This document shows, one piece after another, positions 6,032 through 24,175 of a stretch of 64,000 nucleotides of DNA. The position numbers and the translations under genes were made by a program. The notes beneath the pieces are model-generated. The model was not told where the DNA came from, ran no database searches, and saw only the letters and a program-made list of their open reading frames with translations. This DNA comes from a virus (taxonomy: Duplodnaviria > Caudoviricetes). The stretch lies in the IMG/VR virus record IMGVR_UViG_3300032327_000792. One strand, given 5' to 3'. The stretch's first letter is position 1; each line of letters opens with the position of its first letter.

Positions 6032-6585
6032 CTGACCAGGAGTTTCAGCACACTGGCCAGTGAATCTTGTGTGATATTTGGTAAATCTTTGAGTTCTAGC
6101 ATGAGTTCGGGCGTGTGATCAATCAGAACCCATTGTACCTGACTGTTTTCTGCTATGGCTTGCTTGATCAACGTTCTATAATTTTGAGCACGGTGTTCTT
6201 GTAACCGATCTGGATTTTTTGGTCGAGGTTGCCAATCAAAACCCAACAACAACACAAGATCACTTTGACTGCCTGCTAAGTGCATGGCAATGATTTCTTC
6301 TTTGTTTTCTAAATCTAGTTCGGTGGTTCCGTCATACAATTTTACTGCGGTTGGATGATCCAGTCGTTGATATATGGTGTTAGGTATATAAAAATTACAG
6401 CCTTCATTGAATTTTCTAACCAGCAATGATTGAGCACGATCAAAGTCATTGCAGATCACATTGTCGGTGCCACAACTACGCCATGTTTGCCACCCACCCC
6501 AAAACGGGCCAATTTCTTTGAGTTTGGCAAGATCAAGTTCTGGATCTGGAATCAGTCCATTGGCCAGTATCCAACTGATGTTCAT
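6028..6585 (-). CDS. Hypothetical protein, possibly GT42/MptE-like Rossmann fold
   Basis: N-terminal WILANG and VLLLGFD motifs resemble the IGNGPS...LLGFD families. Confidence 0.4.
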   Translation of the reverse strand: MNISWILANGLIPDPELDLAKLKEIGPFWGGWQTWRSCGTDNVICNDFDRAQSLLVRKFNEGCNFYIPNTIYQRLDHPTAVKLYDGTTELDLENKEEIIAMHLAGSQSDLVLLLGFDWQPRPKNPDRLQEHRAQNYRTLIKQAIAENSQVQWVLIDHTPELMLELKDLPNITQDSLASVLKLLVS

Positions 6586-7625
6586 TCAACCGCCCGGATT
6601 ATCTTCCACTTGAATCCACCCAGACACTGCCATGCAAACACATTGTCGTTTATGCTGGGATTGGCGTTGAATACCACATCGCCCTTGGTGCCAGCATAGT
6701 TTGGTACTTCTGTACCATGACTGATTCTGTGTACTCCTACCCGCAATTTTTTAACAGCAGTGACACCATCAATGTCAATTTCCACTGCCGGGGTACGGTT
6801 AACACCTAGCACAAGATTTTGTGATCGTCCTGTGCCAATGTAGGCTGACCGGTCTTTGAACTTGCCTGCTAGGATGGAAACTTCTTCGTCCCACACACTC
6901 AAGGCCATTTCTGGTTCTTGAGTATTGATTCCTACTCGCTTGTTGAGCACACTCACAGTGTTGTAGATATGTGCTTCTCCGGCAACTGTTAATTCTTTGA
7001 GTTCGCCCACTGACTGTAAATTGCTGTTGGTAATTTTTCTTGACAGTGTGTCTCCGACCACTACACGTACCCCGTCAATCTGAACCTGGGCAAAATCAAT
7101 ACCATTTTCACGTATTTTATTTTCTACATCCGTAACCAATGATTCTCGCCATTCTGTGTTTAAACGATCAAGAGTTTTTTTGCTAATATCTTCGCTGAGT
7201 GTTTGCCATGCATGGTTGTCAGTGTTGATTGATCCTGTGACAGTGAGTTCTTTGATTCGAGCCGACGTGACCACTTCTATTCTGTTGGCGGTCAAACAAT
7301 GCTCAACCACAACGTTTTCATCTAACACAGTTAACTCAGGATTGTGAGCATGATCTTGTATGCCGGGCGTATGCAATCTTGCAGCAACTCGGCTGTCCAA
7401 ATCACTCATGTTTTCGTCTACACGTTGCTGAATCAATCCTCCAACATCAACAGAGCTTAACCCAGCAACAACTCGGCGAACCATTGCTTGATTGACCAGT
7501 TGTTCAATTTTTTCTACCCACGCTGGATCTGTGCCAAGATGTTGAATGGTGTTTACTACTTGATCATTGATGGATTTTTCAATCTGTTCTTCGACTAATT
7601 TATTTAGAGCTGTTTGGTCAAGCAT
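6582..7625 (-). CDS. Hypothetical protein (possibly structural)
   Basis: 347-aa ORF coupled to neighbours; beta-rich C-terminus (KGDVVFNANP...WQCLG). Confidence 0.6.
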   Translation of the reverse strand: MLDQTALNKLVEEQIEKSINDQVVNTIQHLGTDPAWVEKIEQLVNQAMVRRVVAGLSSVDVGGLIQQRVDENMSDLDSRVAARLHTPGIQDHAHNPELTVLDENVVVEHCLTANRIEVVTSARIKELTVTGSINTDNHAWQTLSEDISKKTLDRLNTEWRESLVTDVENKIRENGIDFAQVQIDGVRVVVGDTLSRKITNSNLQSVGELKELTVAGEAHIYNTVSVLNKRVGINTQEPEMALSVWDEEVSILAGKFKDRSAYIGTGRSQNLVLGVNRTPAVEIDIDGVTAVKKLRVGVHRISHGTEVPNYAGTKGDVVFNANPSINDNVFAWQCLGGFKWKIIRAVE

Positions 7626-8532
7626 GTTTTCTCCGGGTATCTAATGTCACACAATGAAATCCACCGCCCAGTGTACGACTGTGCCTGAGTTCCAACGGAA
7701 TGACTGCAAATTTGTGTTGTTCCAACAATTGAATCAACTGTGTCTGATGTCGATCTACTATCACTGTGTGCGGATCTAGTACCAACATATTTAAGGCAAT
7801 CCATTTTGATGCATAAGGATATTGATAGAATCCTTGAGGCACTACTTCATCGACATAAATTTTTGTCCAACTATCAAACGCTCTAGGGCAATTTGATTCA
7901 TTGACTCGGTGTCCATTCAACAACACCAGTCCTTCTCGTAAAGGAACAATGGTTGAATCAATGTGTACACCGGCATAAAAATTGCATAATTCAATGTTGA
8001 TCTCTGGAAACTGTTCACGCAGCCAATCATAAGCCGTACGATTGCCCGAATAACTTTCTAGGAACAACCAAGTATCACCAAGCCTACAAATGTTGGCGGC
8101 ATCTAGTATCATGCCTGAATTTTTGGGCATGATCACGGGTTCGTACCCAACCCAGGCATGTTCCAACGATCCAAATTCTTGATTCCGGCACGGATACATC
8201 ATTGATACATCAACTATCTTTTTGCCAGCAATCAACACCCGGTCACGTGGGCAATAGCCGTACATACCGTTGCGTTTGACATAATTGTAGGGTTGTGGTC
8301 TGTGTACCACTGCACCATAATCTCGGCAGACTTTTGCCAAGGCATTAAGGTCTTCATTGGCTTCGTCCACAATCCATTGTGGCACCGGCCCACTGGGCAC
8401 AGGAGTTTCTGTCCAAAGAGTTTTTTTTGATTCTTCAGCAAACACAGGGTCAGTTGTGGGCCAATTGGCATAGTCAGCACGGCCAACCACTACTTCCTCC
8501 AATGGATCCCATTCGTTTCTGCTGTCAATCAT
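7618..8532 (-). CDS. Amidinotransferase, StrB1 (inosamine-phosphate)/glycine amidinotransferase family
   Basis: NEWDPLEEVVVG, CPRD, DAANICRLG, HIDSTIVPL, HSRTLGGGFHCVTLD; start moved to MIDS (ATGA overlap). Confidence 0.88.
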   Translation of the reverse strand: MIDSRNEWDPLEEVVVGRADYANWPTTDPVFAEESKKTLWTETPVPSGPVPQWIVDEANEDLNALAKVCRDYGAVVHRPQPYNYVKRNGMYGYCPRDRVLIAGKKIVDVSMMYPCRNQEFGSLEHAWVGYEPVIMPKNSGMILDAANICRLGDTWLFLESYSGNRTAYDWLREQFPEINIELCNFYAGVHIDSTIVPLREGLVLLNGHRVNESNCPRAFDSWTKIYVDEVVPQGFYQYPYASKWIALNMLVLDPHTVIVDRHQTQLIQLLEQHKFAVIPLELRHSRTLGGGFHCVTLDTRRKHA

Positions 8533-9047
8533 AGATGTCCTGTGATTTGCAAAGTATATCTTGGTTGTAATCCAATGTTGGCTGCCATGTGCGGAGTGTC
8601 GTGGATCCACTCAACCACTTGCCCTGCTTGCCAGTCAACTATCGGACGATCCATGACTTCAAGATAATGACCAGATTTCCAATCCTCCAACAATACCAGA
8701 GCACGACGTATGAGATGCTCCTGGCCAGCAAGATCAAATAGCTCAATGTAACGTCGATATAGGTCGCTGTGAACTGGCATTACTGTTCCAGTATCCATAC
8801 GATAATAAGAAACGCCAATGTCTTTCCATCCTAGATCAGCATAGTATTCAACAAAATGATGATTCCAACTAGGTAGTCTGTGGCGCATGTCTGCCATGGC
8901 TCCGCATATCTTGGATTGATATCCTTGGCTGATCCACTGGTTGACACTAACAGGATCATTAAAAGGCTCATAGATATAATTGAGCCCTTTGAACTCATCA
9001 TCCCAAAATACTTCTAGGTTATATTCACTGATTGCGTGTGTTACCAT
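8529..9047 (-). CDS. 2OG-Fe(II) oxygenase/cupin-like hydroxylase
   Basis: MPVHSD (HxD) ... DTPHMAAN ... RYTLQITG facial-triad pattern. Confidence 0.7.
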   Translation of the reverse strand: MVTHAISEYNLEVFWDDEFKGLNYIYEPFNDPVSVNQWISQGYQSKICGAMADMRHRLPSWNHHFVEYYADLGWKDIGVSYYRMDTGTVMPVHSDLYRRYIELFDLAGQEHLIRRALVLLEDWKSGHYLEVMDRPIVDWQAGQVVEWIHDTPHMAANIGLQPRYTLQITGHL

Positions 9048-10266
9048 AGTGTACTACGTTGATGTTGGGCATGTCCACGGGCAACTGGCGCCACGGATCC
9101 ACAATAACTGAACCTGATTTGATTTCGCAATACGGCTTGGTGGCTTCCTGTTCGCCTGTGTATTCGTAAGTTATTCGGCGATTGTGTGCCCATAAAAATA
9201 CAGCTGGCAAGTCCACACTTGCGACCACATTGGTTGCATCATCTGCCAACGGATCAACATAGGTCACACGATGACCGGCCTGTTCAACATAGTGCCCAAC
9301 CAAAGTTGAATAGCTTCCAATACAATAAGGAACATCTGGCTTGTATGCTTTGCCGTGAATCACAATTGGTAAGTTGTTTTTTTGTGCTTGTACCACCAAG
9401 AACAATGCCAAGTTTTTGGCCTGGATTTCTCTGGCATGCATGATTGTGTCAAATAAATCATATCCAACTTCGTATTCCTGTGCTAACCAACGTAAGGCAA
9501 TATTATCACGCGGATGACAGGCACCTGCATCGCCCATGCCTGCTGTCATGTACTTGGGTCCCATGATACGCATAGTTGATCTTGCTAGAGCATTGGTTAC
9601 AACATCAACGTTGATGTTGCCAATTTTAAGTGCAAAGTCTTGAATCATGTTGGCCAGTCCAACTTTGGCACTAATAAATGTGTTGTAAAAAATTTTGATT
9701 GCTTCGCATTCGTCCCACGTACCAATTTCGTAACGTGGATTGTTTTGCATGATAGTCTTGTAGATATCAATCAACTCACCAGCCAATGTATTTGGGTTAC
9801 CGTCCTCTGTGCCAATCATGATCATTTCTGGATTGACCATGTCCCATTTGACTGATCCCATGGCAATCAAATATGGATTGTACAGGAACTGATGTTTTTT
9901 ATCCAACAAGGTAATAAAGTGTCGACGTGTTGTTCCCGGCAATACAGTAGAAATCAGTACGACTTTTTTGGGAGTGGTAGCGTATTGGTTGACTTTTTGC
10001 AGTGCATCTTTGACTGCATCATGTCCAAAATCTTTGGGTGCCATGTGACTTGATGGAACCGACCCATCATAGCCTTCTTCGTGCGGTGTTGGTACCGCAA
10101 TAAAAATCCATTCGCTTTCGTTGACAGTTTCTTCAATGCTGCAAACTTTTACCTGGTCACTGGTTCTTGGGTAAATATCAAAGCCGCGTACAGTGTGTTT
10201 TTCTGCCATTACTTCAGCACAGTCCAGGCCAAGTTTTCCTAAACCAATAAATCCTATATTTTTCAT
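9025..10266 (-). CDS. UDP-glucose/GDP-mannose dehydrogenase family protein (full length)
   Basis: GFIGLGKLG NAD-binding, IAVPTP, STVLPGT, K-x-FYNTF, GACHPRD catalytic Cys, GKAYKP. Confidence 0.88.
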   Translation of the reverse strand: MKNIGFIGLGKLGLDCAEVMAEKHTVRGFDIYPRTSDQVKVCSIEETVNESEWIFIAVPTPHEEGYDGSVPSSHMAPKDFGHDAVKDALQKVNQYATTPKKVVLISTVLPGTTRRHFITLLDKKHQFLYNPYLIAMGSVKWDMVNPEMIMIGTEDGNPNTLAGELIDIYKTIMQNNPRYEIGTWDECEAIKIFYNTFISAKVGLANMIQDFALKIGNINVDVVTNALARSTMRIMGPKYMTAGMGDAGACHPRDNIALRWLAQEYEVGYDLFDTIMHAREIQAKNLALFLVVQAQKNNLPIVIHGKAYKPDVPYCIGSYSTLVGHYVEQAGHRVTYVDPLADDATNVVASVDLPAVFLWAHNRRITYEYTGEQEATKPYCEIKSGSVIVDPWRQLPVDMPNINVVHYGNTRNQ

Positions 10267-10269
10267 ATT

Positions 10270-11541
10270 ATGAGTGTCCCTTTAGATCGTTTATATCACT
10301 ACATTGAAAGCATCGCCCAAGAAGTCTACGGCGACGTATTAATTTATCGCTTTTATCCTCATGGGTCAAAAAAAATAGAAGATTTAACATGCCCCAAAAA
10401 AAAGCACACACCTTATCATGGTGCATACTGCCCTCAGTTGATATGCTACGATCAGGAACCGTTAAATTATGATCTATACAAACATACTCCTGTTCGATTA
10501 GATAAAAAATTTTATTCGTGTGATCCTAGCGACTTGCCAAAACGAAATCTTAGAGTTAAAGTTGGAAATATCTACGATAAATGCTTGTTGTTGCATAGTG
10601 AACTAAACAGTAACGAAGTTAATCGTTATCAACAAGATCAATTTGTGCCTGTGTACTACTGGAGTCACGCTATTATATCAAGAGACTGGTTTAGATATGC
10701 TGTACATGTTGACTTTAAAAAAGATATCAACAAAACTTTTTTAATTTATAATCGTGCATGGACCGGAACTAGAGAATATAGATTAAAATTTATTGAAATG
10801 CTGGGTGAGAACAATTTAGTCAATCATTGCCAAAGCAATTTTAATCCATCCGACGGCGAGAGCTATTATAAAACATATAAATTTGCCAACCCGGTTTGGA
10901 AACCCAACTCCGACTTAGAGCAATATTTTGATCCAACAACAGCGTCGAGTGCCAGCAGTGCAGATTTTGATATTGATGATTACAATAGCACAGAGATTGA
11001 AGTTGTACTTGAAACATTGTTTGATGATCAGCGTCAACAGTTAACTGAAAAGATACTGCGACCAATTGCTTGTAAACAGCCGTTTATTTTGGCATCTACG
11101 GCTGGCAGTTTGACATATTTACGTACATATGGATTTAAAACATTTGAAGAAATCTGGGACGAAAGCTATGATTCCATTGATGATCCAATCGAACGTATGC
11201 AAAGAATTATTAAAACAATGCGTGATATTGCATCATGGTCACCAGAATACAAAAAAACCCAGATGCAAAAACTTAGAGAAATTGTTGAACATAATCATCA
11301 ATATTTTTTTAGTGATAAATTTTTTCAGAGTGTAATCTTGGAACTTAAAAAAAATCTATCCACGGCATTTGACCACATAGAAAATACCACAGTTGGAAAA
11401 CACTACCTTGACGTTTCTATGAAGAATATACCCGGGATACGCGAACCCAGAAAAACTTCTAGTTACAATAGACAGTTTAAACACGACGTACTTAAAAAAT
11501 TAAAAGAGTACAGAAAAAGAAATCGTAAAGGGGTTAAATAA
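10270..11541 (+). CDS. Putative glycosyltransferase (TEK...PF family, GT10-like C-terminus)
   Basis: LTEKILRPIACKQPFIL...LRTYGFKTF..WDESYD motif; AT-rich. Confidence 0.5.
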   Translation: MSVPLDRLYHYIESIAQEVYGDVLIYRFYPHGSKKIEDLTCPKKKHTPYHGAYCPQLICYDQEPLNYDLYKHTPVRLDKKFYSCDPSDLPKRNLRVKVGNIYDKCLLLHSELNSNEVNRYQQDQFVPVYYWSHAIISRDWFRYAVHVDFKKDINKTFLIYNRAWTGTREYRLKFIEMLGENNLVNHCQSNFNPSDGESYYKTYKFANPVWKPNSDLEQYFDPTTASSASSADFDIDDYNSTEIEVVLETLFDDQRQQLTEKILRPIACKQPFILASTAGSLTYLRTYGFKTFEEIWDESYDSIDDPIERMQRIIKTMRDIASWSPEYKKTQMQKLREIVEHNHQYFFSDKFFQSVILELKKNLSTAFDHIENTTVGKHYLDVSMKNIPGIREPRKTSSYNRQFKHDVLKKLKEYRKRNRKGVK

Positions 11542-11544
11542 TTG

Positions 11545-13596
11545 ATGTTCAAAAAAGTTCTACTTAGCTCCTGGACTGCTCTATTAACCCTTGTGTTGAT
11601 AGTGGGCATACGTGTAGCAGATCCCTCATTTGTCGAAAGCGTAAGACTACGGTATTTTGACACGCTGATTACTGCCAAAGCTCCAACTGAGAATAACATC
11701 TATACTGTCAACATAGATGAAGCCGCGCTAGACAAATATGGCCAGTGGCCTTTACCGAGAGATCAATATGCTAAAATCATTCAAGATTTGTATCAGCGTG
11801 GTGCTGGTGTTGTGGTTCTTAATGTGCTTATGGCTGAGTCTGATCGCACCGGTGGAGACGTTGTACTAGCCAACGCACTAAAACAATACCCTGTGGTGCT
11901 TCCTAGTGTGCCCGGTGACAAAACAAAGAACAATCCACGACAACCCGGGTCAGCTGTTATTGGTGCCGAGTACACTGATCTAATTGTACAGTATCCGGGA
12001 TTAATTGCCAACGTTCGAGCTCTGGAAACCGGTGCAGTCGGAGTTGGTATTGTAAACACCTTGCCCGAAGTAGATGGTGTTAATCGTAGACTACCCATGG
12101 TAGTTGCTGTCAACGGACGAGTATATCCCAGCATGGCCATGGAGACTCTGCGTGTAGCCGCAGGTGATTCAACGTTTCAAGTCAAACTATCAGAAATTGG
12201 CGTAGAAAAGATGCGCATTCCGGCCGTTGGAGCTATCACCACAGACAACCTAGGACGTGTATGGGTTGATCTAAGTCAGCAATCAAAGTCGGCGAGTTTA
12301 ATGAACTTACCCAAAGACTTTGGTGGGGCTATTGTCATAGTCGGAGCAACGGCTGCTGGTATCGCCAACCCTGTTCCTACTGCCAAAGGTGCTGTATGGC
12401 CGCAGGAGTTTCAGGCCATGGCCATTGGCACAATGATCAATGGTGTGGTCATTGCCAGACCAGCATGGGCCAACGGTGCTGAACTTTTGACAATGTTGGC
12501 TGTTGGTGTTGTACTATTATTTTTAACAAGGTGGACTTATGTTGGTATTGCGTCGGTTATTGGTTTCATTGCTGTATTTGCGTATGGCAGTTACTTTATG
12601 TTTAGCAGTAGTCTTTGGCTATTTGACATTACCGGGCCAATCGCAGGAGTTGTCCTTGTTGCGCTCCATGCTTACGGAGTCAAGTTTGTTTCAGAGTTCT
12701 TACAAAAGCAACAGATAAAGAAACAGTTTGGCACATACCTATCGCCAGCTATGGTAGAAAGGTTACAGCGGAATCCAGAGCTACTACAACTAGGTGGTGA
12801 GTCAAGAGAACTTTCGATTATGTTCACTGACGTTCGTGGATTTACCACAATCTCAGAACACTATGGCAAAGATGTACAAGGCTTGACCCGAATCATGAAT
12901 CGCTACATGACAGCCATGACAGCAAAAATTATAGAGAACCAAGGTACCTTAGACAAGTATATTGGTGACGCACAGATGGCTTTTTGGAACGCACCCCTGG
13001 ATGATGCTGACCATGCCAAGAATGCTGTGCGTACAGGTTTACAAATGATGGGAAGTTTAGATGCATTCAATCAAGAAATTACAGCAGAAGGCATACCAGC
13101 TTTTGGTATGGGTCTTGGGATTAATACTGATACCGTTGTGGTCGGGAACATGGGCAGTGATCAGCGGTTTGACTATACTTGTCTCGGCGATGGCGTCAAC
13201 TTGGCAGCTCGTCTGGAAGGGCAAAGCAAGCCGTACGGTGTCAAAATCGTACTGGGCCCGAAGACGGCGCAACTGGTAAAAGACGAATATTTTGTGCTTG
13301 AGCTAGATTGTATAGCAGTCAAAGGCAAAAAAGAAGGTGTAACAATTTACACAGTGCTGGGTCGTAACAACGAGATCAATCTAGACAAAGGTGACGTGCA
13401 AATGCACGAAGCTATGTTGGTATTGTATCGTCAACAACGGTTTGACCAAGCCATTAAGTTCTGCCAAGACCTCAAGGGCAGATTTGCAGGTGAGATGGAC
13501 CAATACTACGACGCTTGGATAGAGCGTTGTGAGGAGATGAAACATGTTGAATTACCAACAGATTGGGACTCAGTTTACAGAGCAGTTTCAAAATAA
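11545..13596 (+). CDS. CHASE2-domain class III adenylate cyclase
   Basis: N-terminal TM, CHASE2 (IDEAAL..GQWP.PR; PEVDGVNRRLP), 3 TM, catalytic MFTDVRGFT, DKYIGDA, YTCLGDGVNLAARLE, VKGK. Confidence 0.93.
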   Translation: MFKKVLLSSWTALLTLVLIVGIRVADPSFVESVRLRYFDTLITAKAPTENNIYTVNIDEAALDKYGQWPLPRDQYAKIIQDLYQRGAGVVVLNVLMAESDRTGGDVVLANALKQYPVVLPSVPGDKTKNNPRQPGSAVIGAEYTDLIVQYPGLIANVRALETGAVGVGIVNTLPEVDGVNRRLPMVVAVNGRVYPSMAMETLRVAAGDSTFQVKLSEIGVEKMRIPAVGAITTDNLGRVWVDLSQQSKSASLMNLPKDFGGAIVIVGATAAGIANPVPTAKGAVWPQEFQAMAIGTMINGVVIARPAWANGAELLTMLAVGVVLLFLTRWTYVGIASVIGFIAVFAYGSYFMFSSSLWLFDITGPIAGVVLVALHAYGVKFVSEFLQKQQIKKQFGTYLSPAMVERLQRNPELLQLGGESRELSIMFTDVRGFTTISEHYGKDVQGLTRIMNRYMTAMTAKIIENQGTLDKYIGDAQMAFWNAPLDDADHAKNAVRTGLQMMGSLDAFNQEITAEGIPAFGMGLGINTDTVVVGNMGSDQRFDYTCLGDGVNLAARLEGQSKPYGVKIVLGPKTAQLVKDEYFVLELDCIAVKGKKEGVTIYTVLGRNNEINLDKGDVQMHEAMLVLYRQQRFDQAIKFCQDLKGRFAGEMDQYYDAWIERCEEMKHVELPTDWDSVYRAVSK

Positions 13597-13750: not shown

Positions 13751-13768
13751 AAGTAACACAACTGTAAC
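13751..13768 (+). promoter_or_regulatory. PhoB/OmpR-type direct-repeat box
   Basis: AAGTAAC-ACAA-CTGTAAC, 11-bp period; near-identical to 16638-16655. Confidence 0.5.
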
Positions 13769-13790
13769 ATGTTAAGTTATAAATAATTCT

Positions 13791-13858
13791 AATCGAGTGC
13801 AATGATCGAGCACAGTTGGAACTCGTAACCAACACTAAAGAGCCTAGGCTCTTTTTTT
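13791..13858 (+). ncRNA. Candidate small RNA with its own promoter and terminator
   Basis: TATAAATA at 13778-13785; hairpins GTGC/GCAC and GTTGG/CCAAC; terminator AAAGAGC-CTAG-GCTCTTTTTTT; no ORF. Confidence 0.55.
13837..13858 (+). terminator. Intrinsic terminator
   Basis: Palindrome AAAGAGCCTAGGCTCTTT followed by a T-tract. Confidence 0.8.
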
Positions 13859-13935
13859 AATGACTTGTAATATTGTGTGTAATATTTTGTCCACAACAAT
13901 TTGTTAAATAACTACACTACAAGGAGGAGTAAGCC

Positions 13936-14094
13936 ATGAAACAAGAAAAACTTGTTCAAAAGCTGTATCGGGCCTGCTTCGACCACGACGCCGAGAAGAT
14001 TGCAAAACTTCGCCAAGAAGAATTTGCCAAAATCTTGAAACGCAAGGCCGAAGGCAAGTCTTTTACTGCTGAGTGGACTGTTGTACAGATATAA
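13936..14094 (+). CDS. Small basic hypothetical protein (52 aa)
   Basis: [21 protein letters not shown]...; TAAATA and AAGGAGG RBS. Confidence 0.75.
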
Positions 14095-15070
14095 GACTGC
14101 GTTGAAATATGTGCCAACAGGCTTCCCAGGTCCATCGTTGAGAAGCTTGTTGAACTCTGTTGCGATCTAACAACAAGCAGTGTTCCACAGCCGTGATTAG
14201 ATTTTCATCCATCCATCCATTGATACCATTTTCCACAACATCTATGGGTCCTTGCACAGGAAATGCTGCCACTGGAGTGCCTTGTGCCATGGCTTCAATC
14301 ATTACCAAGCCAAAAGTATCAGCTCTGCTGGGAAACACAAACACATCGGCGTTGTAGTATTGATTCACTAGATCTTGTCCTTGCTTGTAACCCAGGAACA
14401 ATGCATTGGGTAACAATCTCTGTGCTTCTTCCCTATAGGGGCCATCACCAACTATGATTAGAAAATAACGATTCTGTATTTCGACCAGTTGATCTAGTCC
14501 TTTTTCGGGACTGACGCGACCCACACACAACACAATGGGCAAGTGTTTGTGGTCGACTCGTAGGATATTGGGTTCAATAGATCTATCTACTCCGCGAGCC
14601 CACACAGTGAGATTTTTAAATCCGTGTGAGTGTAAATCTTTGCGTATGGTTTCAGTTGTGACCAACACTCTGTGACTGTTTTTGTGAAACCAACGCAGAT
14701 AAGCATAGGTCCAGCGAGCAGGAACTCCATACATCACAGATAAGAACTTAGGAAAGTCAGTGTGATAGCTAGTGTTATAACTATAACCATTACGCTCACA
14801 CCACCAGCGAGCAAAAAGGCCCACAGGTCCTTCTGTAGCGATGTGTATAAAGTCCGGCTGTATCTCCTTAATTTTTTTTGAGATACCCCAGGGCCACGAG
14901 AGCTTAACTTCAGGATAGCCAGGGCAATCACAATGAGGGAACTGCCCGGGATCAAGATAAACAACGTCATAGCCGTTGCCAACAGCATGACTTTCCAAGT
15001 TTTTGAAAGTTGTGACCACGCCATTGATCTGCTCCTGTGTGTTGTCCGTGACAATTAATATTTTAGGCAT
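14063..15070 (-). CDS. agt: GT4 glycosyltransferase, Agt-like diacylglycerol glycosyl/glucuronosyltransferase
   Basis: [78 protein letters not shown]; start moved to MPKIL. Confidence 0.8.
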
Positions 15071-15848
15071 TGCGATATTGTTTGTTAGATTCAATAGCAG
15101 TAGACAACATAGGCATGTGTACCTGTTGACCTTGGGCTAGATAGTTCAATGCTGCGGTATCCTTGGGGAAGCATGCTCCGCCATAGCCATGTTCTCCGTC
15201 AGGCCCGGGTACAGCCCAGTGAGTATTGCCCAAGCGGCTATCTGTTTTGGCAATACTGGACAGTTTGTCCCAATCCAGTTCCAATGCATGAGCCAATACA
15301 TACAACTCATTGTTCACAATAACCTTCATGGCCAGCATACAATTGGCCATGTACTTGAAGTAACTGGCTTCTTCGATGCTACAGTATTCTATTTTTACTC
15401 GATCAAAGTTCACAGCACTGGACATCAATATGTCAGTGACTTCATCACGTAGTTTCTTTCGACATCCTACCACAATCTTGTGTGGGTTTACATAGTCAAA
15501 CTTGGCACGAGCCTGTGTCAAAAACTCTGGTACATGTGCTAGATTTAGATCTAGCTCTTTTTCCAACTGTCTATAAACTGTAGGACTTGCTGTGCTTTTG
15601 GCAACAACTATTCCGTTGTACCCAGATAGGCCTGTCAACACCTGTGTTAATGTTGAGGTATCACACTCGCCTGAGTCAGACTGAGGAGTTGGTACACAAA
15701 CAAATATAGCACGGCATTTGTCACGAAGTTTGTCTATTGAGACCGATTCTGATCCTAGCTTGGGATCATTTATCAAAATCTTGTCGTCAGGATAACTGGC
15801 AGCCACTGCCGAGCCAACATATCCATTGCCTATGATACCTATTTTCAT
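15063..15848 (-). CDS. ugd: UDP-glucose 6-dehydrogenase-like protein lacking the C-terminal domain
   Basis: GIIGNGYVG, FVCVPTP, KSTASP, PEFL, KYMANCMLA, GYGGACFPKD; only 261 aa. Confidence 0.8.
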   Translation of the reverse strand: MKIGIIGNGYVGSAVAASYPDDKILINDPKLGSESVSIDKLRDKCRAIFVCVPTPQSDSGECDTSTLTQVLTGLSGYNGIVVAKSTASPTVYRQLEKELDLNLAHVPEFLTQARAKFDYVNPHKIVVGCRKKLRDEVTDILMSSAVNFDRVKIEYCSIEEASYFKYMANCMLAMKVIVNNELYVLAHALELDWDKLSSIAKTDSRLGNTHWAVPGPDGEHGYGGACFPKDTAALNYLAQGQQVHMPMLSTAIESNKQYRNA

Positions 15849-16606
15849 TTTTCGCTCACAATCTCATTCCAGTATACAATTTCCCAACGACCATCCCAGT
15901 GTTCAACCAATGCTGTACAACTTTCTACCCAGTCGCCGTCGTTCATGTACACAATACCATCAATGTCTCGTATTTCAGCTGTGTGTATGTGTCCACAGAT
16001 GATGCCATCATAGCCTTTGGTCTTGCAATAGTCAGCCAACAATGTTTCAAAGTTTAAGACATACGAAACAGCCTGTTTGGTATTTTGCTTGATCCAGCGA
16101 CTCATGGACCAGTATCTAAGACCCAATCGAGAACGCACAAAGGACCATGCATCGTTCAAACGAATAATGATGTCGTACAACCAATCTCCAATGTGCATCA
16201 GCACTCGCCCTGAACTGATGTGCATCAATGTGTCAAACATATCTCCATGTACCACTAGATACCGACGACCATCCAATCCTGTGTAATCACATCGGTTGAC
16301 AACTTCAACATTGCCCACTGCAGGAATAAAGTTTAGCCATTTACGTAGTACTTCATCGTGATTACCCACAATGTATTTGATTGTAGCACCTCGTTTGGCT
16401 GCTGTCAATATTTTACGGACAACGTTTGAATGTTCTTGGGGCCAAAACCATTTCTTTTGTAGACGCCAACCGTCAATGATATCGCCTACCAGTAATATTG
16501 TTTCGGCTGTGTTGTGTTTTAAAAAGTTACAAAGCAAATCTGCCTTGCATCCTCGGCTGCCCAGATGTATGTCGCTGATACTGATAGTTCTATATTTTGG
16601 TTGCAT
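15845..16606 (-). CDS. plcP: PlcP-like phospholipase C (LpxH-like metallophosphoesterase)
   Basis: SDIHLG, C.A..L..FL, LVGDIIDGW.L...W.WP..H..VV.KIL, GNHDE, HGDMFD, GL.YWS.S, CGHIH, NDGDWVESCTALVE. Confidence 0.85.
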   Translation of the reverse strand: MQPKYRTISISDIHLGSRGCKADLLCNFLKHNTAETILLVGDIIDGWRLQKKWFWPQEHSNVVRKILTAAKRGATIKYIVGNHDEVLRKWLNFIPAVGNVEVVNRCDYTGLDGRRYLVVHGDMFDTLMHISSGRVLMHIGDWLYDIIIRLNDAWSFVRSRLGLRYWSMSRWIKQNTKQAVSYVLNFETLLADYCKTKGYDGIICGHIHTAEIRDIDGIVYMNDGDWVESCTALVEHWDGRWEIVYWNEIVSEK

Positions 16607-16637
16607 ACACTATTTACAGTTTCTGCAACATTGCCCT

Positions 16638-16655
16638 ATTACATTTGTGTTACAT
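16638..16655 (-). promoter_or_regulatory. PhoB/OmpR-type direct-repeat (Pho-box-like) upstream of plcP
   Basis: ATGTAAC-ACAA-ATGTAAT, 11-bp period, ~30 nt upstream of the plcP start. Confidence 0.55.
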
Positions 16656-16684: not shown

Positions 16685-17095
16685 TTATTTGATAGGAATA
16701 CGCAATCGTGCCGCAATACATCCAGCAACCATGTCTCCGACTTGTGGGATAATCATTGTGCATACCCAGCCATAACACACTTCGGGCAATGCCACAGGTA
16801 TCACATTCTGTACAGCATAGCCAGTAACTGCGCCAGCGTTGATACCTATGTCCCAGCGATTATTTTTATACAAAGAATATCTAGCATAGGCATACGTGCT
16901 GTAACGATACTCACTGTTTTTATAAGCGCCTGCTGCTGCTGTCCAATTACCACCAATTGTTTGCTCGTAACCAGCGCCCCAGTTTTGTTCGTTGTATCCA
17001 GATTTATTGTGTTTGCTTACACCATTGAAATGTACGTAAGATTCTGCACTAGCAGTTGATGTGATGAATAGTAATAAGAAAAGTAGGCGTTTCAT
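16685..17095 (-). CDS. Small outer-membrane beta-barrel, PagP-like
   Basis: Signal peptide ASA; SKH..YNEQNWGAG..AYKNS..STY..GAVTGY pattern. Confidence 0.55.
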   Translation of the reverse strand: MKRLLFLLLFITSTASAESYVHFNGVSKHNKSGYNEQNWGAGYEQTIGGNWTAAAGAYKNSEYRYSTYAYARYSLYKNNRWDIGINAGAVTGYAVQNVIPVALPEVCYGWVCTMIIPQVGDMVAGCIAARLRIPIK

Positions 17096-18178: not shown

Positions 18179-19276
18179 TTACTTTTGTACAATAGTAATC
18201 ACTGTTGATCCGCCACGATTGATTTGCTGAGTTACTGGTGCGCTATCTTGCGAAATATTGAGAGTAACATCGGCTTCCTTGTTGATTGTGACCTGTGCAG
18301 TGTGCATAGTTTGTCTGCGTAAAATCAGTTTTAATTCGTCTTCATTGAAACCGTAGGTCAATCCAGATGCCGCATTGTATCCTGGTAACATGGTTTTTTC
18401 AGTCAATAGATTTTCTTGACTTTGTGCCAACTGTCGATTAGAAAGATCCAGCATATTCATCAACATATCTCCGTCGAGGTAGTTAAGGTCTAGATCGCGG
18501 AATGCTGCTAACGGATCTTCATCCAATGCGTTGTATTTCAAGAAGTCTTGATCCAAAAAGTTTATCAATGGATTGTCTCTGGACAGTGCATTAACAGCTT
18601 CTTCTATTTGCGGAGGTGGTTGAACAATCAGCATGTTGTTGATGTTGGCTTGATCCAACACAATGGTCACAGGAATGCTAGGCATGGCTGACAGACTGGC
18701 AACCATGGTGGCTTGATATGCTTGGTCCAGGGTCACTTCGCCTGCGTCATTTGACACAGTAATGGCACCCGTGACACATCCGCGGTTATCGCAACTGGGC
18801 AACAGAATCACAAGACTGCGGCCTAGTTCGTCCACGGTCATTGAAAAGTCTGTGCCACGTACAGCCACAGTGGCAGTGGGAGTTTTCACATCAACATTCT
18901 GTGGGTTGGTCTTGGCAATCTGTCCTGAGGCATACCGAGCTGTGCCTAACACAACTTTCATGGCAATCTTGCCTGATCCTTTTTTGGGATCATACACAAA
19001 GTCATCAATTATCAGTTTTGATTGTTCTGTGATATTGACTGTGGTGTTGTCTTCGAATGTGAGTTTGGCTTTGGCTCGGGCAGTGACAATGGTGTCATTC
19101 ATTTCCACAGGAGAATTCACTGAGGATGGCAGTGATTTTTTAGCACGTACAATTTCTGTTGGACCAGTTTGCTCTGTAATTTTACCTACAGAAGCCAAAC
19201 TAGTCTGACTGAACAATGCTGACAGTATTGCTGTTGCCAGTAGTATTGACTGTGACAGTTTTTGCGGTAAGACCAC
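18179..19276 (-). CDS. FecR-domain secreted protein
   Basis: Signal peptide; V.MNDTIVT..AKAKLTFEDNTTVNITEQSKL.ID..., VKTPTATVAVRGTDF. Confidence 0.85.
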   Translation of the reverse strand: MVLPQKLSQSILLATAILSALFSQTSLASVGKITEQTGPTEIVRAKKSLPSSVNSPVEMNDTIVTARAKAKLTFEDNTTVNITEQSKLIIDDFVYDPKKGSGKIAMKVVLGTARYASGQIAKTNPQNVDVKTPTATVAVRGTDFSMTVDELGRSLVILLPSCDNRGCVTGAITVSNDAGEVTLDQAYQATMVASLSAMPSIPVTIVLDQANINNMLIVQPPPQIEEAVNALSRDNPLINFLDQDFLKYNALDEDPLAAFRDLDLNYLDGDMLMNMLDLSNRQLAQSQENLLTEKTMLPGYNAASGLTYGFNEDELKLILRRQTMHTAQVTINKEADVTLNISQDSAPVTQQINRGGSTVITIVQK

Positions 19277-19832
19277 TCTGTGTTACTCCAATTGTGTTTA
19301 GATCACCTGTGGCAGTGATAATGGTTGTGCTTGCGCCGCTGTTGGTGCTGGTATGGGTCACTGTGTTGGTGTCTCCGCTAATGTTGACAAAACTTGAGTG
19401 GTTAGCACCTGTGCCCAAGTTCTGTGTGATCACGTTGTTGTCACCGGCAACTTGCTGGTTAATTACACTACCACTACAGCCAGCACTTTGCGTGGTTCCA
19501 CAATTGATCACACTTTGGTTGCCTGAACCAGTAATACTCACTGTTGAACTAGTTGATGCACCATTCAACACCATGGCCAACTTATTGTTGCTGCCAATTT
19601 GTTCAATGATTACTGAGTTAGAACCGCCACCAACAAAAGCATCAAGTCCTGCGCCCGGCTCTCCGACTCGGTTGCCTGTGCCATCTTGTGTGATGGTTAT
19701 GGAGGAATTGTCACCAACTTGTTCAATGTAAATTTCGTTGGCAGAAACACCGCTAGACAACATCACTGTTGCCAGCAGTATGGCGGATATATGTTTGACC
19801 AATTCACCAACATTTGTTAATCTTGTTTTCAT
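19200..19832 (-). CDS. Curlin-like repeat protein (CsgA/CsgB-like)
   Basis: Signal peptide then repeats IYIEQVGDN, ITQDGTGN, IEQIGSNN, QQVAGDNN, ATGDLN, TTGNSN. Confidence 0.75.
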   Translation of the reverse strand: MKTRLTNVGELVKHISAILLATVMLSSGVSANEIYIEQVGDNSSITITQDGTGNRVGEPGAGLDAFVGGGSNSVIIEQIGSNNKLAMVLNGASTSSTVSITGSGNQSVINCGTTQSAGCSGSVINQQVAGDNNVITQNLGTGANHSSFVNISGDTNTVTHTSTNSGASTTIITATGDLNTIGVTQSGLTAKTVTVNTTGNSNTVSIVQSD

Positions 19833-19926
19833 TTTATTCAACAAATCGAGTTGGCAAACATATTAGTCTGTACCCCGATCCTCTCCCTGGTCTTTGAGAC
19901 CTTTTTATCATTATATTTACAGGATA

Positions 19927-20991
19927 TCATGGTTTCATTAACCTGTCGCTTTTGACCCAGCCTCGACGACCAACTGAGTCTTGCACTGCCATCCACGAGT
20001 CCGGTCCTGGAGTCACTGTTAACTCTGTGTTTTCTTTCAACATCCATGTACGTTGACTACGTTCGTTGGGTTCTTTGTAGATGTAAGACGCTTCACGAAG
20101 TTTCATAGTTGACACTGACTCTTTGACCACTGCGGGTGGTTTGATTTCTGCCACTGGTTCTACAACCACCGACGTTGCTGTTGTGGTTGCAGGTACAGCA
20201 GATACAACATTGTTGGCTAGTTGTTTGTACTTCCACAGGCCTTTCTTTTCGCCTTCCACAATCATTTCGTAAACGGCCTGTTCAATGGCCACACGTACAG
20301 CATAGGTAGTAGGCTCATTGAGTGCTGCGCCTGATTCAAGTTCCAGACTTCTAGTTCCTTGATCCACAAATCTCAACACACTGACATTGTGCTGAGTACT
20401 GTAGATAGTTTTTGACACTGCCACATTCAACAACACTTCGCCGGAAGATATTGAAATTAGTCTAAGACTGATTACAATTTCATCCACACGATATTGTTGA
20501 CTTCCACCGATACCCAAAAATCTAGCACCATTACCACCTGATCGAATGTTGCTGTCATATCCAATAATGCCGCCTTCCAAGATCAAGCCGGCTACTGTGA
20601 GTGGCTTCAAAGGTTTGGCTTCTTTGCCCTCATAGACTTCACGCTGATTTCTTATGAGTTGACGCTCTTTGATCAAGTTGTCCAGACCCACACGTTCAAC
20701 AACTCGAAACCATTTTTTTGAGTCTTGTAAACTCTTGATCAAAAACACTTCGGATCCTTGTGTGACTGCACTGGAGAACAGAGCTAGATTTGTACTGGAT
20801 TTTTTTTGTCCTGTTAGATCTTTGAATCCATACACTGCCACTGTCATGGGAGCACCATCCAATTCTGGCAGTTTGGTCAACAAGTTCTCTCGAGGGTTCA
20901 ACGCAATAGGATCTTCCTTAGCTAGATCCATGTGAATCTGAGCACACCCCGACAGTGTGATTGCAACAAAAAAGATTAGCAAGTAGCGCAT
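19927..20991 (-). CDS. csgG: Curli secretion channel CsgG with a C-terminal SH3-like extension
   Basis: Lipobox LSGC; VAVYGFKDLTGQ, FSSAVTQG, WFRVVERVGLDNLIKERQ, GGIIGYDSN; tail ...GWVKSD. Confidence 0.9.
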   Translation of the reverse strand: MRYLLIFFVAITLSGCAQIHMDLAKEDPIALNPRENLLTKLPELDGAPMTVAVYGFKDLTGQKKSSTNLALFSSAVTQGSEVFLIKSLQDSKKWFRVVERVGLDNLIKERQLIRNQREVYEGKEAKPLKPLTVAGLILEGGIIGYDSNIRSGGNGARFLGIGGSQQYRVDEIVISLRLISISSGEVLLNVAVSKTIYSTQHNVSVLRFVDQGTRSLELESGAALNEPTTYAVRVAIEQAVYEMIVEGEKKGLWKYKQLANNVVSAVPATTTATSVVVEPVAEIKPPAVVKESVSTMKLREASYIYKEPNERSQRTWMLKENTELTVTPGPDSWMAVQDSVGRRGWVKSDRLMKP

Positions 20992-21434
20992 TAGAATGCA
21001 AAACTCCCTATGGGTACAGTAACCGTGGTAACTCCACCAGCGGCTTCTCTAATAGTCAGCGTAACGTCTGTGCCAGTTTTGATCCAAGAGATGTTGGTGC
21101 CTTGGAACGCCATTTCTCCTGAATTGGCGCCGTCACTGAACATAGCATCTGCCAGTTGCTTTGAGAGTTGAGCATAAATTCTAGACTCTACGTTGACTAA
21201 AAATTTAGCCAGATTGGTATTTTTAGCATCTCGTGCCACCTGATCCGCAGCTGATTTTTCTGCATCTTTGATGGTCTTGCGTCGGTTGGCTTCTAATTGC
21301 TCAATGGTCAACACATGGGTTGAATACCCATTGCCCGGTATAAATGCTGGAGACTGGAAAGAGTGGACCAGCTCTGTGGCCCATGCCGTTGCTGAAAAAA
21401 CAGCGACTATTGTTATTGTTATTATTTTTTTCAT
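20991..21434 (-). CDS. csgF: CsgF-like curli assembly protein
   Basis: Signal peptide; ELVHSFQSPAF.GNG...; FLVNVESRIYAQLSKQL; coupled to csgG. Confidence 0.7.
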   Translation of the reverse strand: MKKIITITIVAVFSATAWATELVHSFQSPAFIPGNGYSTHVLTIEQLEANRRKTIKDAEKSAADQVARDAKNTNLAKFLVNVESRIYAQLSKQLADAMFSDGANSGEMAFQGTNISWIKTGTDVTLTIREAAGGVTTVTVPIGSFAF

Positions 21435-22489: not shown

Positions 22490-23278
22490 ATGCAATTTAA
22501 TTTTGATTTAATTTCTGATCTACACATAGAAACTTGGGACAGCTTTGATTGGTCAGGTCAACCTACCAGTCCTTACTGCGTTGTTGCCGGTGATGTTTGT
22601 AGAGATCGCGACGTATTGCGAGATACCTTGCGCCATTTGGGCACTTGTTATCAAGGTGTGTTTTACATCGACGGCAATGATGAACATCGCAACGACCTTG
22701 ATAATCTTGGAGAAAGTTACCAATATCTTGATCAAACTCTGGACAACATCAAAAACGTAGTATACCTTCAGGACAATGTGGTCATCATCAACGGTGTTGC
22801 TATACTGGCCACCAACGGCTGGTGGAGCTACGACATGGATCCTGAAATTGACTATGAACAAAGTCAGTTTTGGTATCAGGACCGCATGCAAACGTTGCCC
22901 GGAACCACGGACTCTATCACCGGTATTGCGTTCAATGACGCCACATACATGCTCAACAGTGTGAAAAAATTACAAACCCACCAAGATGTTCGTAGCATTG
23001 TAATTGTTACTCATACTGTTCCGGCACCTTGGATTTTGAGTCATGATATTGACCTAGTTGACACCTGGCGGTTTAATTGCATGGGTAATCCACACCTACA
23101 GTTATTGCTCAACGAAGACACCGAAAACAAAATTCATACCTGGTGTTTTGGTCACTATCACAAATCAGTAGACCGTGTACACAACGGTATACGCTATGTC
23201 AACAACTGCCGAGGACGAGGTGATACCAAATGGTCTCAGCCGGCATATTACCCTCGACGTATCACTGTTGAGATTTAA
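22490..23278 (+). CDS. Calcineurin-like metallophosphoesterase
   Basis: SDLH, AGD, DGNDEH, VTHTVP, FGHYH. Confidence 0.85.
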   Translation: MQFNFDLISDLHIETWDSFDWSGQPTSPYCVVAGDVCRDRDVLRDTLRHLGTCYQGVFYIDGNDEHRNDLDNLGESYQYLDQTLDNIKNVVYLQDNVVIINGVAILATNGWWSYDMDPEIDYEQSQFWYQDRMQTLPGTTDSITGIAFNDATYMLNSVKKLQTHQDVRSIVIVTHTVPAPWILSHDIDLVDTWRFNCMGNPHLQLLLNEDTENKIHTWCFGHYHKSVDRVHNGIRYVNNCRGRGDTKWSQPAYYPRRITVEI

Positions 23279-23583
23279 ACAGTGTCCGGTTCTAGTTTGA
23301 TTTGTAACGGATAGTCTTGACTGCGTGCAGCCACAGTAACTTCAATGCCTTTTTGTTCTGCTACTTCATAAGGCAACACAGCAACCACAGCTGATCCAGC
23401 ATGATGAATATCTTCTGTAATCTTTAGAGCTGTTTGTGCGGTGTAATTAAAAAAATCAATCAAGGTTTCAATAACAAATTCCATTGACGTTTGATTGTCA
23501 TTGATATAGATGACCTTGAACATTGGAGGTTCTTTAAGTGCGGTATTGTTTTTTGTTTTTGTTACTGCATCTGGTTGTGACAT
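23275..23583 (-). CDS. clpS: Clp protease adaptor ClpS
   Basis: PPMFKVIYINDNQTSMEFV..L..FF...A..I...IH..GSAVV...YEVAEQK. Confidence 0.9.
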   Translation of the reverse strand: MSQPDAVTKTKNNTALKEPPMFKVIYINDNQTSMEFVIETLIDFFNYTAQTALKITEDIHHAGSAVVAVLPYEVAEQKGIEVTVAARSQDYPLQIKLEPDTV

Positions 23584-23642
23584 CCTTGGTCCTTTGTTGG
23601 GTGTGGAGAGCCGATGCCCTCCACAGTATTTACTATATTATA

Positions 23643-24080
23643 TCAGTTTTCGTATGAGATTGCAATAGTCTTTGGCTTGGCTGATTCCGGCACAATGCGT
23701 TCCAACTTCACAGTTAGAATACCGTCACGAGCAATAGCTGTTCTAACTTCAACATAATCTCCCAGGCTAAATGTTCGAATAAACTTACGAGCACTGATAC
23801 CGTGATGTCTGACTACATGTCCTTCGGGCAACACATCAGTTTTTGCTCCAGTGATAATAAGTTCTCCATCTTTGACTGTGATTTCAAGATCTCCTTGACT
23901 GAAACCGGCCACTGCTACCTGTACTTCATAGGTATTCTCGCCAGTTTCCACAATGTTGTATGGTGGGTAATTTGTTGATGCAGCATGATCGATCTGATTC
24001 ACAATACGATCAAACAGTCTATCTACGCCAATGGCGTTGCGATAGAATGGGGTTAGATCAAAAGCAGTAATTTTAGTCAT
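23643..24080 (-). CDS. Small heat shock protein (Hsp20/IbpA-like)
   Basis: IGVDRLF, YPPYNIV, AVAGFS, HGISARKFIRTF.L, GILTVKLER..PE. Confidence 0.93.
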   Translation of the reverse strand: MTKITAFDLTPFYRNAIGVDRLFDRIVNQIDHAASTNYPPYNIVETGENTYEVQVAVAGFSQGDLEITVKDGELIITGAKTDVLPEGHVVRHHGISARKFIRTFSLGDYVEVRTAIARDGILTVKLERIVPESAKPKTIAISYEN

Positions 24081-24156
24081 TTGTTTTCTCCTTTGTTAAG
24101 CAAGTTGACTATACAGTGTGGACCCGACCATCGGCATCCACACATGTATTTATTTA
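24081..24156 (-). ncRNA. ROSE-like RNA thermometer leader, copy 2 (hsp20)
   Basis: TAAATA; stem GTGTGGA-TGCCGA..TCGGG-TCCACAC; CTTGCTT-AACA-AAGGAG. Confidence 0.7.
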
Positions 24157-24175
24157 GACAAGTCTATGATGTCAA

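Follow-up and report, generated by a model that had tools for sequence, protein, structure and literature searches.

The window considered here, a 64,000-nucleotide stretch of viral DNA (IMG/VR record IMGVR_UViG_3300032327_000792), contains a set of three open reading frames (ORFs) on the minus strand between positions 16606 and 14063. The first encodes a metallophosphoesterase (Pfam Metallophos), the second a short protein with the N-terminal and central UDPG_MGDP_dh domains of nucleotide-sugar dehydrogenases, and the third a glycosyltransferase of family GT4 (Glyco_transf_4 and Glycos_transf_1); they are referred to here as plcP, ugdS and agt (Table 1). The first two genes overlap by 4 nt and the last two by 8 nt when agt is read from its ATG, and the three are therefore read as translationally coupled genes of one operon. 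An alternative TTG start at 15094 would extend the agt product to 343 aa, but the ATG at 15070 is more likely because this is the start called in the related contigs L089 and L090, whose products are 93-95% identical. The 78-bp gap upstream of plcP contains a direct repeat. Three overlapping genes behind a direct repeat of 11-bp period had been described in a first-pass annotation of this DNA, and the ORF coordinates and the position of the repeat (16654..16638) confirm that arrangement. On sequence grounds, the stretch is probably a phage auxiliary metabolic operon that serves membrane-lipid renovation under phosphate stress.

The window is densely packed with genes, nearly all of them on the same strand. 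Matches to PHROG families include the alpha and beta subunits of ribonucleotide reductase, a DnaB-type helicase, a primase, an ATP-dependent ligase and GroEL, together with tail-fibre proteins and structural proteins of the virion. The operon is flanked by curli genes and a CHASE2 cyclase gene, and a csgF/csgG curli and CHASE2 cyclase gene set has been recorded in pelagimyophage-type phages (PMC7029224). The cyclase is approximately 40% identical to its counterparts in Methylophilales phage Melnitz and Pelagibacter phage HTVC008M. Because of the replication genes, the ribonucleotide reductase, the virion-protein matches and the pelagimyophage-type curli genes, the window is read as DNA of a large T4-like aquatic phage, and the concern that the contig could be host chromosome falls away. 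Its closest cultured relatives are distant, with protein identities of only about 40-53%, and a megablast search of the operon region against a collection of cultured phages returned zero matches.

Table 1 Features of the operon and its surroundings, with positions in the 64-kb window
Feature	Position	Strand	Remarks
plcP: PlcP-family metallophosphoesterase (predicted), 253 aa	15845..16606	-	No signal peptide; assigned from Pfam Metallophos, equivalog scores and tree
ugdS: short two-domain UDP-glucose/GDP-mannose-dehydrogenase-like protein, 261 aa	15063..15848	-	GGACFPKD kept; UDP-binding domain absent
agt: Agt/GTcp-clade GT4 glycosyltransferase (predicted), diacylglycerol glucosyl/glucuronosyl transferase type	14063..15070	-	335 aa from ATG
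Pho-box-like direct repeat TGTAAC-ACAAA-TGTAAT, 11-bp period	16638..16654	-	Conserved in relatives
TAAATA, candidate -10 element	16611..16616	-	4 nt before plcP ATG, 21 nt after box
Small-RNA promoter: box AGTAAC-N5-TGTAAC (one mismatch), 11 nt, TAAATA	13752..13785	+	Box pattern scan
Structured small RNA, ~70 nt	13786..13858	+	Two hairpins and intrinsic terminator; converges on operon 3' end
12-bp tandem repeat with TGTAAT, two copies	13866-13889	+	
52-aa ORF	13936-14094	+	Strong Shine-Dalgarno sequence
PagP-like outer-membrane protein, 136 aa, signal peptide	16685..17095	-	phrog_3600, E 2.4e-21
ugdL: full-length, divergent nucleotide-sugar dehydrogenase-like protein, 413 aa	9025..10266	-	Below family cut-off; 24% identical to ugdS
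ugdL and 423-aa partner, divergent pair	9025-11541		
Curli secretion set (csgF, csgG, curlin-repeat gene), FecR-like gene and CHASE2 adenylate/guanylate cyclase, flanking operon	18179-21434 and 11542-13596	- and +	
DesA-family membrane fatty-acid desaturase	2974-3690	-	404.5 bits vs NCBIfam equivalog cut-off 400
Proteostasis set: ClpP, ClpS, Hsp20, GroEL, AAA-type ATPase	174-764, 23275-25804, 26525-27727	-	

The phosphoesterase is of the PlcP type

The product of the first gene matches Pfam Metallophos with an E-value of 2.3e-14, and the metal-binding residues D12, H14, D42, N82, H83, H120, H206 and H208 are invariant among 12 homologues. The same metallophosphoesterase superfamily includes LpxH, the UDP-2,3-diacylglucosamine diphosphatase, and this is the name under which GenBank, IMG and KEGG-based surveys label phage homologues of gene 1. 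The PlcP homologue of Pelagibacter phage Mosig, which is 53% identical to the window protein, is accordingly annotated as a UDP-2,3-diacylglucosamine hydrolase.

Several lines of evidence separate the window protein from LpxH. It scores 36.4 bits against the LpxH equivalog model NF003743, which has a cut-off of 134, and a sequence search with gene 1 among solved LpxH structures gave no match. One genome of Arenimonas encodes both a true LpxH (294 bits) and a PlcP-type paralogue (43.5 bits) on separate contigs, and alphaproteobacterial genomes contain only the weak, PlcP-type match to the LpxH model. In a tree of 92 sequences, a quick tree with SH-aLRT as its only branch support, LpxH falls outside all 90 PlcP-type rows, at the end of a very long branch, and the window protein groups with phage copies beside a metagenome-assembled genome of the Holophagaceae and the Hyphomonadaceae. 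A scan of bacterial genomes identified homologues with 48-63% identity at 80 named loci. The published PlcP criterion of Sebastian et al. is a BLASTP E-value below 1e-40 to the characterised protein MED193_17359/EAQ46983; a tblastn proxy gave E-values of 1e-80 to 1e-106 for gene 1 against bacterial plcP-agt-operon homologues, including those of Rhizobiales and Rhodobacteraceae. Gene 1 is therefore assigned from its sequence to the PlcP phospholipase C family, as a paralogue and not an orthologue of LpxH, and the preference for PlcP already expressed in the first-pass annotation is borne out by the agreement of model scores, structure search, coexistence in Arenimonas and tree. The family is large, with thousands of metagenomic members, many of the closest of which lie on phage-like contigs.

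The glycosyltransferase belongs with Agt and GTcp

The best known counterpart of the phage genes is the bacterial plcP-agt operon, represented by PlcP of Sinorhizobium, MED193_17359 of Phaeobacter, PB7211_983 with PB7211_960/GTcp of the SAR11 strain HTCC7211, and Agt (atu2297) of Agrobacterium. In SAR11, the agt product forms both glucosyl- and glucuronosyl-diacylglycerol, and the adjacency of the two genes has been described as the 'type 2' arrangement by Sebastian et al. (PMC4796936). A full-length homologue of the window GT4 adjoins plcP in 58 of the 80 bacterial loci (29-42% identity, E-values down to 1e-85), and in 57 of these it follows plcP directly on the same strand. The survey of synteny thus places plcP beside agt in most of the bacterial loci as well as in many phage loci.

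A biochemical study of GTcp defined its clade by the motifs GRVAxEKN and FPSxTDTFG, in the latter of which Asp256 replaces the glutamate common to GT4 enzymes, and identified as essential the catalytic His104 together with Arg163 and Trp320, which contact diacylglycerol. The window protein has GRVSPEKG at residues 192-199 and FPSRADTFG at 254-262, with Asp instead of Glu, and the clade Asp is kept in 56 of 61 plcP-linked GT4s. Matched by position, at consistent offsets of 3-7 residues from the GTcp numbering rather than by an alignment to GTcp, the essential residues correspond to H111, R167 and W323, which are conserved in 58-60 of the 61; overall the clade motifs and the H/R/W residues are found in 56-61 of them. 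Solved GT4 structures match the window protein weakly, over the C-terminal half only and with E-values of 1e-10 or worse, which is consistent with the low identity reported between the Agt/GTcp clade and other GT4s. Because of the clade motifs, the residues for diacylglycerol use and the conserved adjacency to plcP, gene 3 is classified by its sequence as a GT4 of the Agt/GTcp clade, and its earlier description as Agt-like stands.

The phage and bacterial operons thus share both protein families, their order and strand, an upstream Pho-box-type site, and the GT4 motifs and essential residues. They differ in that the window version lies on a lytic-type T4-like phage, in that its promoter has TGTAA half-sites and a TAAATA beside the ATG, and in the short dehydrogenase gene between the two, an insertion found in none of the 80 bacterial loci.

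These assignments bear on a different purpose for the operon, in which the dehydrogenase and glycosyltransferase would modify lipopolysaccharide (LPS), O-antigen or capsule and the phosphoesterase would be an LpxH-like enzyme of lipid A synthesis. Ugd and glycosyltransferase genes of pelagimyophages have been read as O-chain modification (PMC7029224), in virome surveys such genes appear as lpxH among those for LPS biosynthesis, and a PagP-like gene adjoins the operon. Against this stand the failure of gene 1 at the LpxH equivalog (36 vs 134 bits), the separate existence of the PlcP paralogue and true LpxH in one genome, and a GT4 that combines the Agt/GTcp-specific Asp motif with the diacylglycerol-contact residues and retains the plcP-agt adjacency known from bacteria, all of which makes a role in LPS or capsule very improbable.

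The middle gene encodes an atypical short dehydrogenase

The ugdS product shares with UDP-glucose 6-dehydrogenase (Ugd/TuaD/KfiD; PDB 3PHL, 1DLI) and GDP-mannose dehydrogenase (1MFZ) a Rossmann NAD domain with a GxGxxG motif, followed by a helical central domain that carries the catalytic Cys motif GGxCxPKD. It matches PF03721 (NAD-binding) and PF00984 (central), retains the motifs GNGYVG, KST, PEF and GGACFPKD, and aligns to approximately residues 110-317 of Klebsiella Ugd. An AlphaFold model gives two confidently predicted domains (pLDDT 84.9, low only at residues 110-121) that superpose on GDP-mannose and UDP-glucose dehydrogenases over their N-terminal and central domains, with TM-scores of 0.6-0.78 over the query. 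Unlike these enzymes ugdS is without the entire UDP-binding C-terminal domain, as the protein ends at residue 261 and PF03720 finds no match in it. Its substrate loop reads PEFLTQA, invariant in its family, where Ugd has PEFLREG. The nucleotide-sugar dehydrogenase model TIGR03026 gives 150.1 bits against a cut-off of 189.8, and the Ugd equivalogs give 72-104 bits against cut-offs of 670-757.

The short length is the norm for the family, at around 260 aa. The 120 best homologues listed are 60-95% identical and, with few exceptions, 259-265 aa long; an exhaustive search found 285 clusters at E<=1e-30, the best 150 representatives of which are nearly all of 250-300 aa. The possibility that ugdS is a broken Ugd gene was rejected, given that a length of about 260 aa is kept across hundreds of homologues. 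By sequence, ugdS is thus best described not as a canonical Ugd but as a member of a large conserved family of its own. Two statements of the first-pass annotation lack support in their present wording: that a Ugd encoded by gene 2 makes UDP-glucuronate, and that the operon constitutes a complete module. The UDP-binding domain of gene 2 is absent, its score is below the dehydrogenase cut-off, its substrate loop is altered, and it occurs also in phages without plcP or agt nearby.

The gene order around ugdS varies among related contigs. The window and L089/L090 have plcP-ugdS-agt; L092/L093 have plcP-agt-ugdS, an order that recurs in L091 with two further genes inserted; and L094/L095 have plcP-pstS-porin-ugdS. 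That ugdS stays beside plcP and/or agt in four orders on diverged contigs argues for a functional linkage, or selection on linkage, between them. A competing explanation is that ugdS is unrelated to glycolipids and a mere neighbour that serves another phage process, for example the supply of sugar nucleotides for glycosylation of DNA or virions. The size of the family (285 clusters) would suit this, as would the contigs where the gene stands alone among small phage genes and the distant short homologues in Campylobacter CP220-type phages, cyanophage S-SSM7 and Bacillus phage SP-15. Set against the four arrangements that keep it with plcP or agt, the neighbour explanation seems doubtful, while retaining a substantial share of the probability.

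A second dehydrogenase-like gene of the window, ugdL, encodes a full-length protein and is possibly the real source of UDP-glucuronate. It forms a divergent pair with a gene for a 423-aa protein without a family match; the partner measures 408-437 aa in relatives and the pair is conserved.

The promoter resembles a Pho box

The direct repeat upstream of plcP can also be written as two 7-bp repeats, ATGTAAC-ACAA-ATGTAAT (16655..16638), which resemble CTGTCAT at an 11-bp period, and weaker TGT half-sites follow it in steps of 12-13 bp. For the exact pattern TGTAAY-N5-TGTAAY, block shuffles predict 0.05 occurrences in the window, and one is present. Relaxed patterns within the window alone are at chance level (3 vs 2.2 expected with one mismatch, and 3 vs 3.0 for a second pattern), and the significance of the box therefore derives from its conservation in relatives and not from the one-mismatch count. 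No Shine-Dalgarno sequence is present before plcP, so the mRNA may be leaderless.

In diverged contigs the repeat is kept while the surrounding sequence is not, for instance as CTGTAACAAAACTGTAAT in L092 and TGTAACACAACTGTAAT in L091. A common layout recurs among 40 unique plcP upstream regions, again without a Shine-Dalgarno sequence, of TGT(A/C)A(C/T)-N5-TGT(A/C)A(C/T), 11 or 21-22 nt, TAAATA, 4-5 nt and ATG. The spacing of 21-22 nt, seen in the window, L089 and several others, corresponds to one additional helical turn. Phage loci totalling 2.6 Mb contain 67 unique boxes, 18 of which show the full box-TAAATA-ATG layout with the 11-nt spacing; 1.56 Mb of bacterial loci contain four boxes. 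The ORFs downstream of box-TAAATA promoters fall into two clusters of 25 PstS and 14 PlcP proteins, with a few boxes preceding a small RNA, and the four PstS proteins tested of the 25 score 386-429 bits against the NF008171 cut-off of 339. Several phage boxes consist of classical Pho-box half-sites, such as TTGTCAT...TTGTCAC and CTGTCAC...CTGTCAC. Upstream of 79 bacterial plcP genes, TGTNAN-N5-TGTNAN is found at two sites only, both in Arcobacter, and therefore the phage box does not appear to have been simply copied from those bacteria.

In a textbook PhoB-dependent promoter, a direct repeat of 11-bp period takes the place of the -35 element, and a -10-like element follows at a distance of one helical turn. 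Because the promoter type is common to phage pstS and plcP, control by PhoB is the best reading of the box promoter as judged from sequence. Alternatively, the repeat could be the operator of a phage-encoded activator that defines a temporal promoter class, so that expression would be timed rather than phosphate-sensed. The MotA boxes of T4 sit 11-13 bp upstream of the -10 element, and the fixed 11-nt spacing to TAAATA resembles T4-type promoter logic. The half-sites are mostly TGTAA rather than TGTCA, TAAATA also stands near the ATG of unrelated genes, and the pattern is rare upstream of bacterial plcP (2/79). A general temporal class should precede many types of gene, whereas the genes downstream of the boxes are almost exclusively pstS, plcP and one small RNA; the boxes are moreover rare, with a single exact copy in 64 kb, and several have canonical Pho-box half-sites. 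A phage-encoded activator is for these reasons unlikely, and PhoB is retained as the presumed regulator. As for the TAAATA element, its position near the ATG may mark a class of promoters for leaderless mRNAs or an initiation signal independent of Shine-Dalgarno pairing. With T4-type late promoters in mind, TATAAATA was counted in the window and is not enriched (3 found vs 1.7 expected).

Phosphate genes accompany the module in related phages

Marine phages are known to carry phosphate-stress genes such as pstS, phoA and phoH. Of these, pstS and phoA improve phosphate uptake, and cyanophage pstS is under the control of the host PhoB/PhoR system. The plcP module is likewise tied to phosphate scarcity, and pstS genes on related contigs have the same box-TAAATA promoter and often stand directly before plcP. 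In Mosig plcP is divergent from pstS; in L094/L095 the genes that come after it are pstS and one for a phosphate-selective porin; and among the gathered phage loci pstS-plcP occurs nine times and pstS-plcP-agt four times. The arrangements on phage contigs thus comprise plcP-ugdS-agt, plcP-agt-ugdS, plcP-agt, pstS-plcP(-agt) and plcP-pstS-porin-ugdS. The module differs from the other phosphate genes of marine phages in that it would act on the phosphorus stored in membranes and not on uptake.

A variant is present in L006 (positions 6001-8293; JGI 3300025389, a 141-kb contig), where plcP is followed by genes for a RimK-type ATP-grasp protein and an Acetyltransf_5/FeeM (OlsB-like) N-acyltransferase in place of the glycolipid genes. 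This phage is syntenic with the window (csgF-csgG-FecR-curlin ... CHASE2 cyclase), and its arrangement may represent an aminolipid version of the same module. A widespread homologue of PlcP, of 247 aa and 62% identity, occurs in 253 collection blocks including Tara Oceans, where it lies among T4-type gp53, gp2, baseplate and gp32 genes (L098-L103).

A structured small RNA faces the operon

On the opposite strand a predicted small RNA with a box promoter of its own converges on the 3' end of the operon. Its conserved hairpin loops are of the GAUAGA type and AACUCGUAA. A scan of viral contigs with a 15-nt core, together with the loci gathered here, yielded 48 full copies; in 18 of them plcP begins downstream on the same strand at a distance of no more than 400 nt, and several contigs have the RNA directly after pstS. 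Some 77 further matches to the 15-mer in viral contigs comprise the core only and were set aside as probably due to chance. Among 27 sequences 99.2% of cells pair, and 31 cells are changed on both sides compared with 7.3 in shuffles. The covariation score of 0.449, against 0.150 for shuffled alignments, was reached in none of 500 shuffles, and slid controls are near zero; the top of hairpin 2 is fixed by the search pattern and so is uninformative for covariation. A comparison with Rfam gave no matching family. The alignment thus describes a conserved structured RNA, previously undescribed and with strong compensatory changes.

Just beyond the RNA is a tandem repeat with TGTAAT. A 52-aa ORF comes next, preceded by a strong Shine-Dalgarno sequence; it runs head-on into the 3' end of the GT4 gene, with which it shares 32 nt.

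Neighbouring genes

Immediately upstream of plcP and outside the operon lies a gene for a PagP-like outer-membrane protein, possibly a further envelope-lipid gene. The PHROG that it matches is annotated as PagP, a lipid A palmitoyltransferase. Pfam gives no match for this protein, and L089, the relative with 93% identity, does not have the gene at this place. Two small membrane proteins that are paralogues of each other (phrog_18771) are encoded between the curli, FecR-like and CHASE2 cyclase blocks that flank the operon. A DesA-family desaturase constitutes a second membrane-lipid gene of the window and is found near plcP also in the relatives L006, L091 and L092. The phage in addition carries a proteostasis set that includes ClpP, ClpS and Hsp20.

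Proposed function in phosphate-limited infection

It is proposed that at low phosphate a PhoB-type response regulator of the host would activate the Pho-box-like/TAAATA promoter. Cytoplasmic PlcP would then remove the phosphorylated head group from phospholipids of the inner membrane, so that diacylglycerol is left, an activity suggested by its family, and the Agt/GTcp-type GT4, as its clade suggests, would glycosylate the diacylglycerol from UDP-glucose or UDP-glucuronate. The resulting phosphorus-free glycolipids would keep the bilayer intact, and the short dehydrogenase, apparently tied to the module, would probably supply the glucuronate head group. The product of PlcP consists of phospho-head groups and not free phosphate, and therefore another phosphatase is needed; once dephosphorylated by other enzymes, the head groups could feed the phosphorus pool for phage DNA. 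Of the original suggestion that the phage releases phosphate from host membranes under phosphorus limitation, the link to phosphate stress holds through the pstS and porin neighbours and the shared Pho-box-type promoter, whereas free phosphate would require a further phosphatase, none of which is encoded in the operon.

The possible yield can be estimated from two marine isolates, whose phospholipid quotas fall on remodelling by 0.27 million P atoms per cell in one case and 0.9 million in the other (PMC4796936). With about 0.5 million P in a genome of 250 kb, the gain would amount to approximately 0.5-2 phage genome equivalents, which is meaningful where bursts are small (about 9 for HTVC008M; PMC7029224).

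A number of observations weigh against this proposal. The match to experimentally characterised PlcP and Agt is indirect, by way of plcP-agt-operon homologues, and pstS was not found in the window. ugdS is without plcP or agt for company in L096/L097. The box of the window is 21 nt and not 11 nt from TAAATA, and has TGTAA instead of TGTCA half-sites; TAAATA itself is found 4-6 nt before the ATG of unrelated window genes, at 11545 and 22490 (+) and at 60782 (-), and its resemblance to T4-type late promoters means that the box could bind a phage activator in place of PhoB. Finally, the PagP-like, curli and DesA neighbours fit a general remodelling of surface and membrane equally well.

This last point leads to the suggestion that the enzymes act as proposed while the benefit lies elsewhere than in phosphorus, in superinfection exclusion, in protection from stress or grazers, or in the control of membrane fluidity while a long infection lasts. 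Bacterial lipid remodelling is reported to alter phage adsorption and the outcome of predator-prey encounters (PMC9938194, PMC9804370, PMC9457565), and envelope genes are numerous in the region (PagP-like, csgF/csgG, FecR-like and a DesA above its equivalog cut-off). The exchange of the glycolipid genes in L006 for ATP-grasp and OlsB/FeeM-type N-acyltransferase genes would also agree with a benefit of this kind. The repeated linkage of plcP to pstS and a phosphate-selective porin, with a shared promoter type, points instead to phosphate economy, so that a benefit without phosphorus appears rather improbable; the two kinds of benefit are in any case not mutually exclusive.

A bolder version of the phosphate proposal holds that these phages carry a small Pho regulon of their own, comprising pstS, plcP-agt, the small RNA and ugdS, which is read by host PhoB, and that ugdS, having lost its UDP-binding domain, oxidises not UDP-glucose but the head group of glucosyl-diacylglycerol to glucuronosyl-diacylglycerol within the membrane. 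This is speculative and we would give it little credence at present; if true, ugdS would represent a new route to an acidic glycolipid that replaces phosphatidylglycerol.

Novelty and implications

The enzymes correspond to a known bacterial system; what is new is their presence in a phage, the short dehydrogenase gene inserted between them and the promoter. A literature search found no paper describing a phage PlcP or plcP as an auxiliary metabolic gene, the papers that mention PlcP together with phages or viruses being concerned with host lipids, and the Melnitz paper makes no mention of the operon genes. The statement in the first-pass annotation that the pathway is undescribed as a phage module accordingly agrees with the literature found. 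The surveys that report lpxH in viromes (PMC10653327, PMC9611531) treat it as a gene of LPS biosynthesis, one of them as typical of the surface waters of an oligotrophic sea; such 'lpxH' entries are probably misnamed.

The occurrence of a PlcP homologue among T4-type genes in marine metagenomes indicates that part of the oceanic PlcP signal is viral, and some of the marine signal that has been credited to bacteria (PMC4796936, PMC6030836) may therefore be of phage origin. Further products of the analysis are a clearly defined type of promoter, an RNA motif that is new and shows strong covariation, and a large family of dehydrogenases so far unstudied. A cultured system is available in Mosig on HTCC1062. 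Overall, the mining of host membrane phospholipids with the bilayer left intact would, if true, be a strategy distinct from that of the uptake genes, and the gain of 0.5-2 genome equivalents would be relevant for large phages with small bursts.

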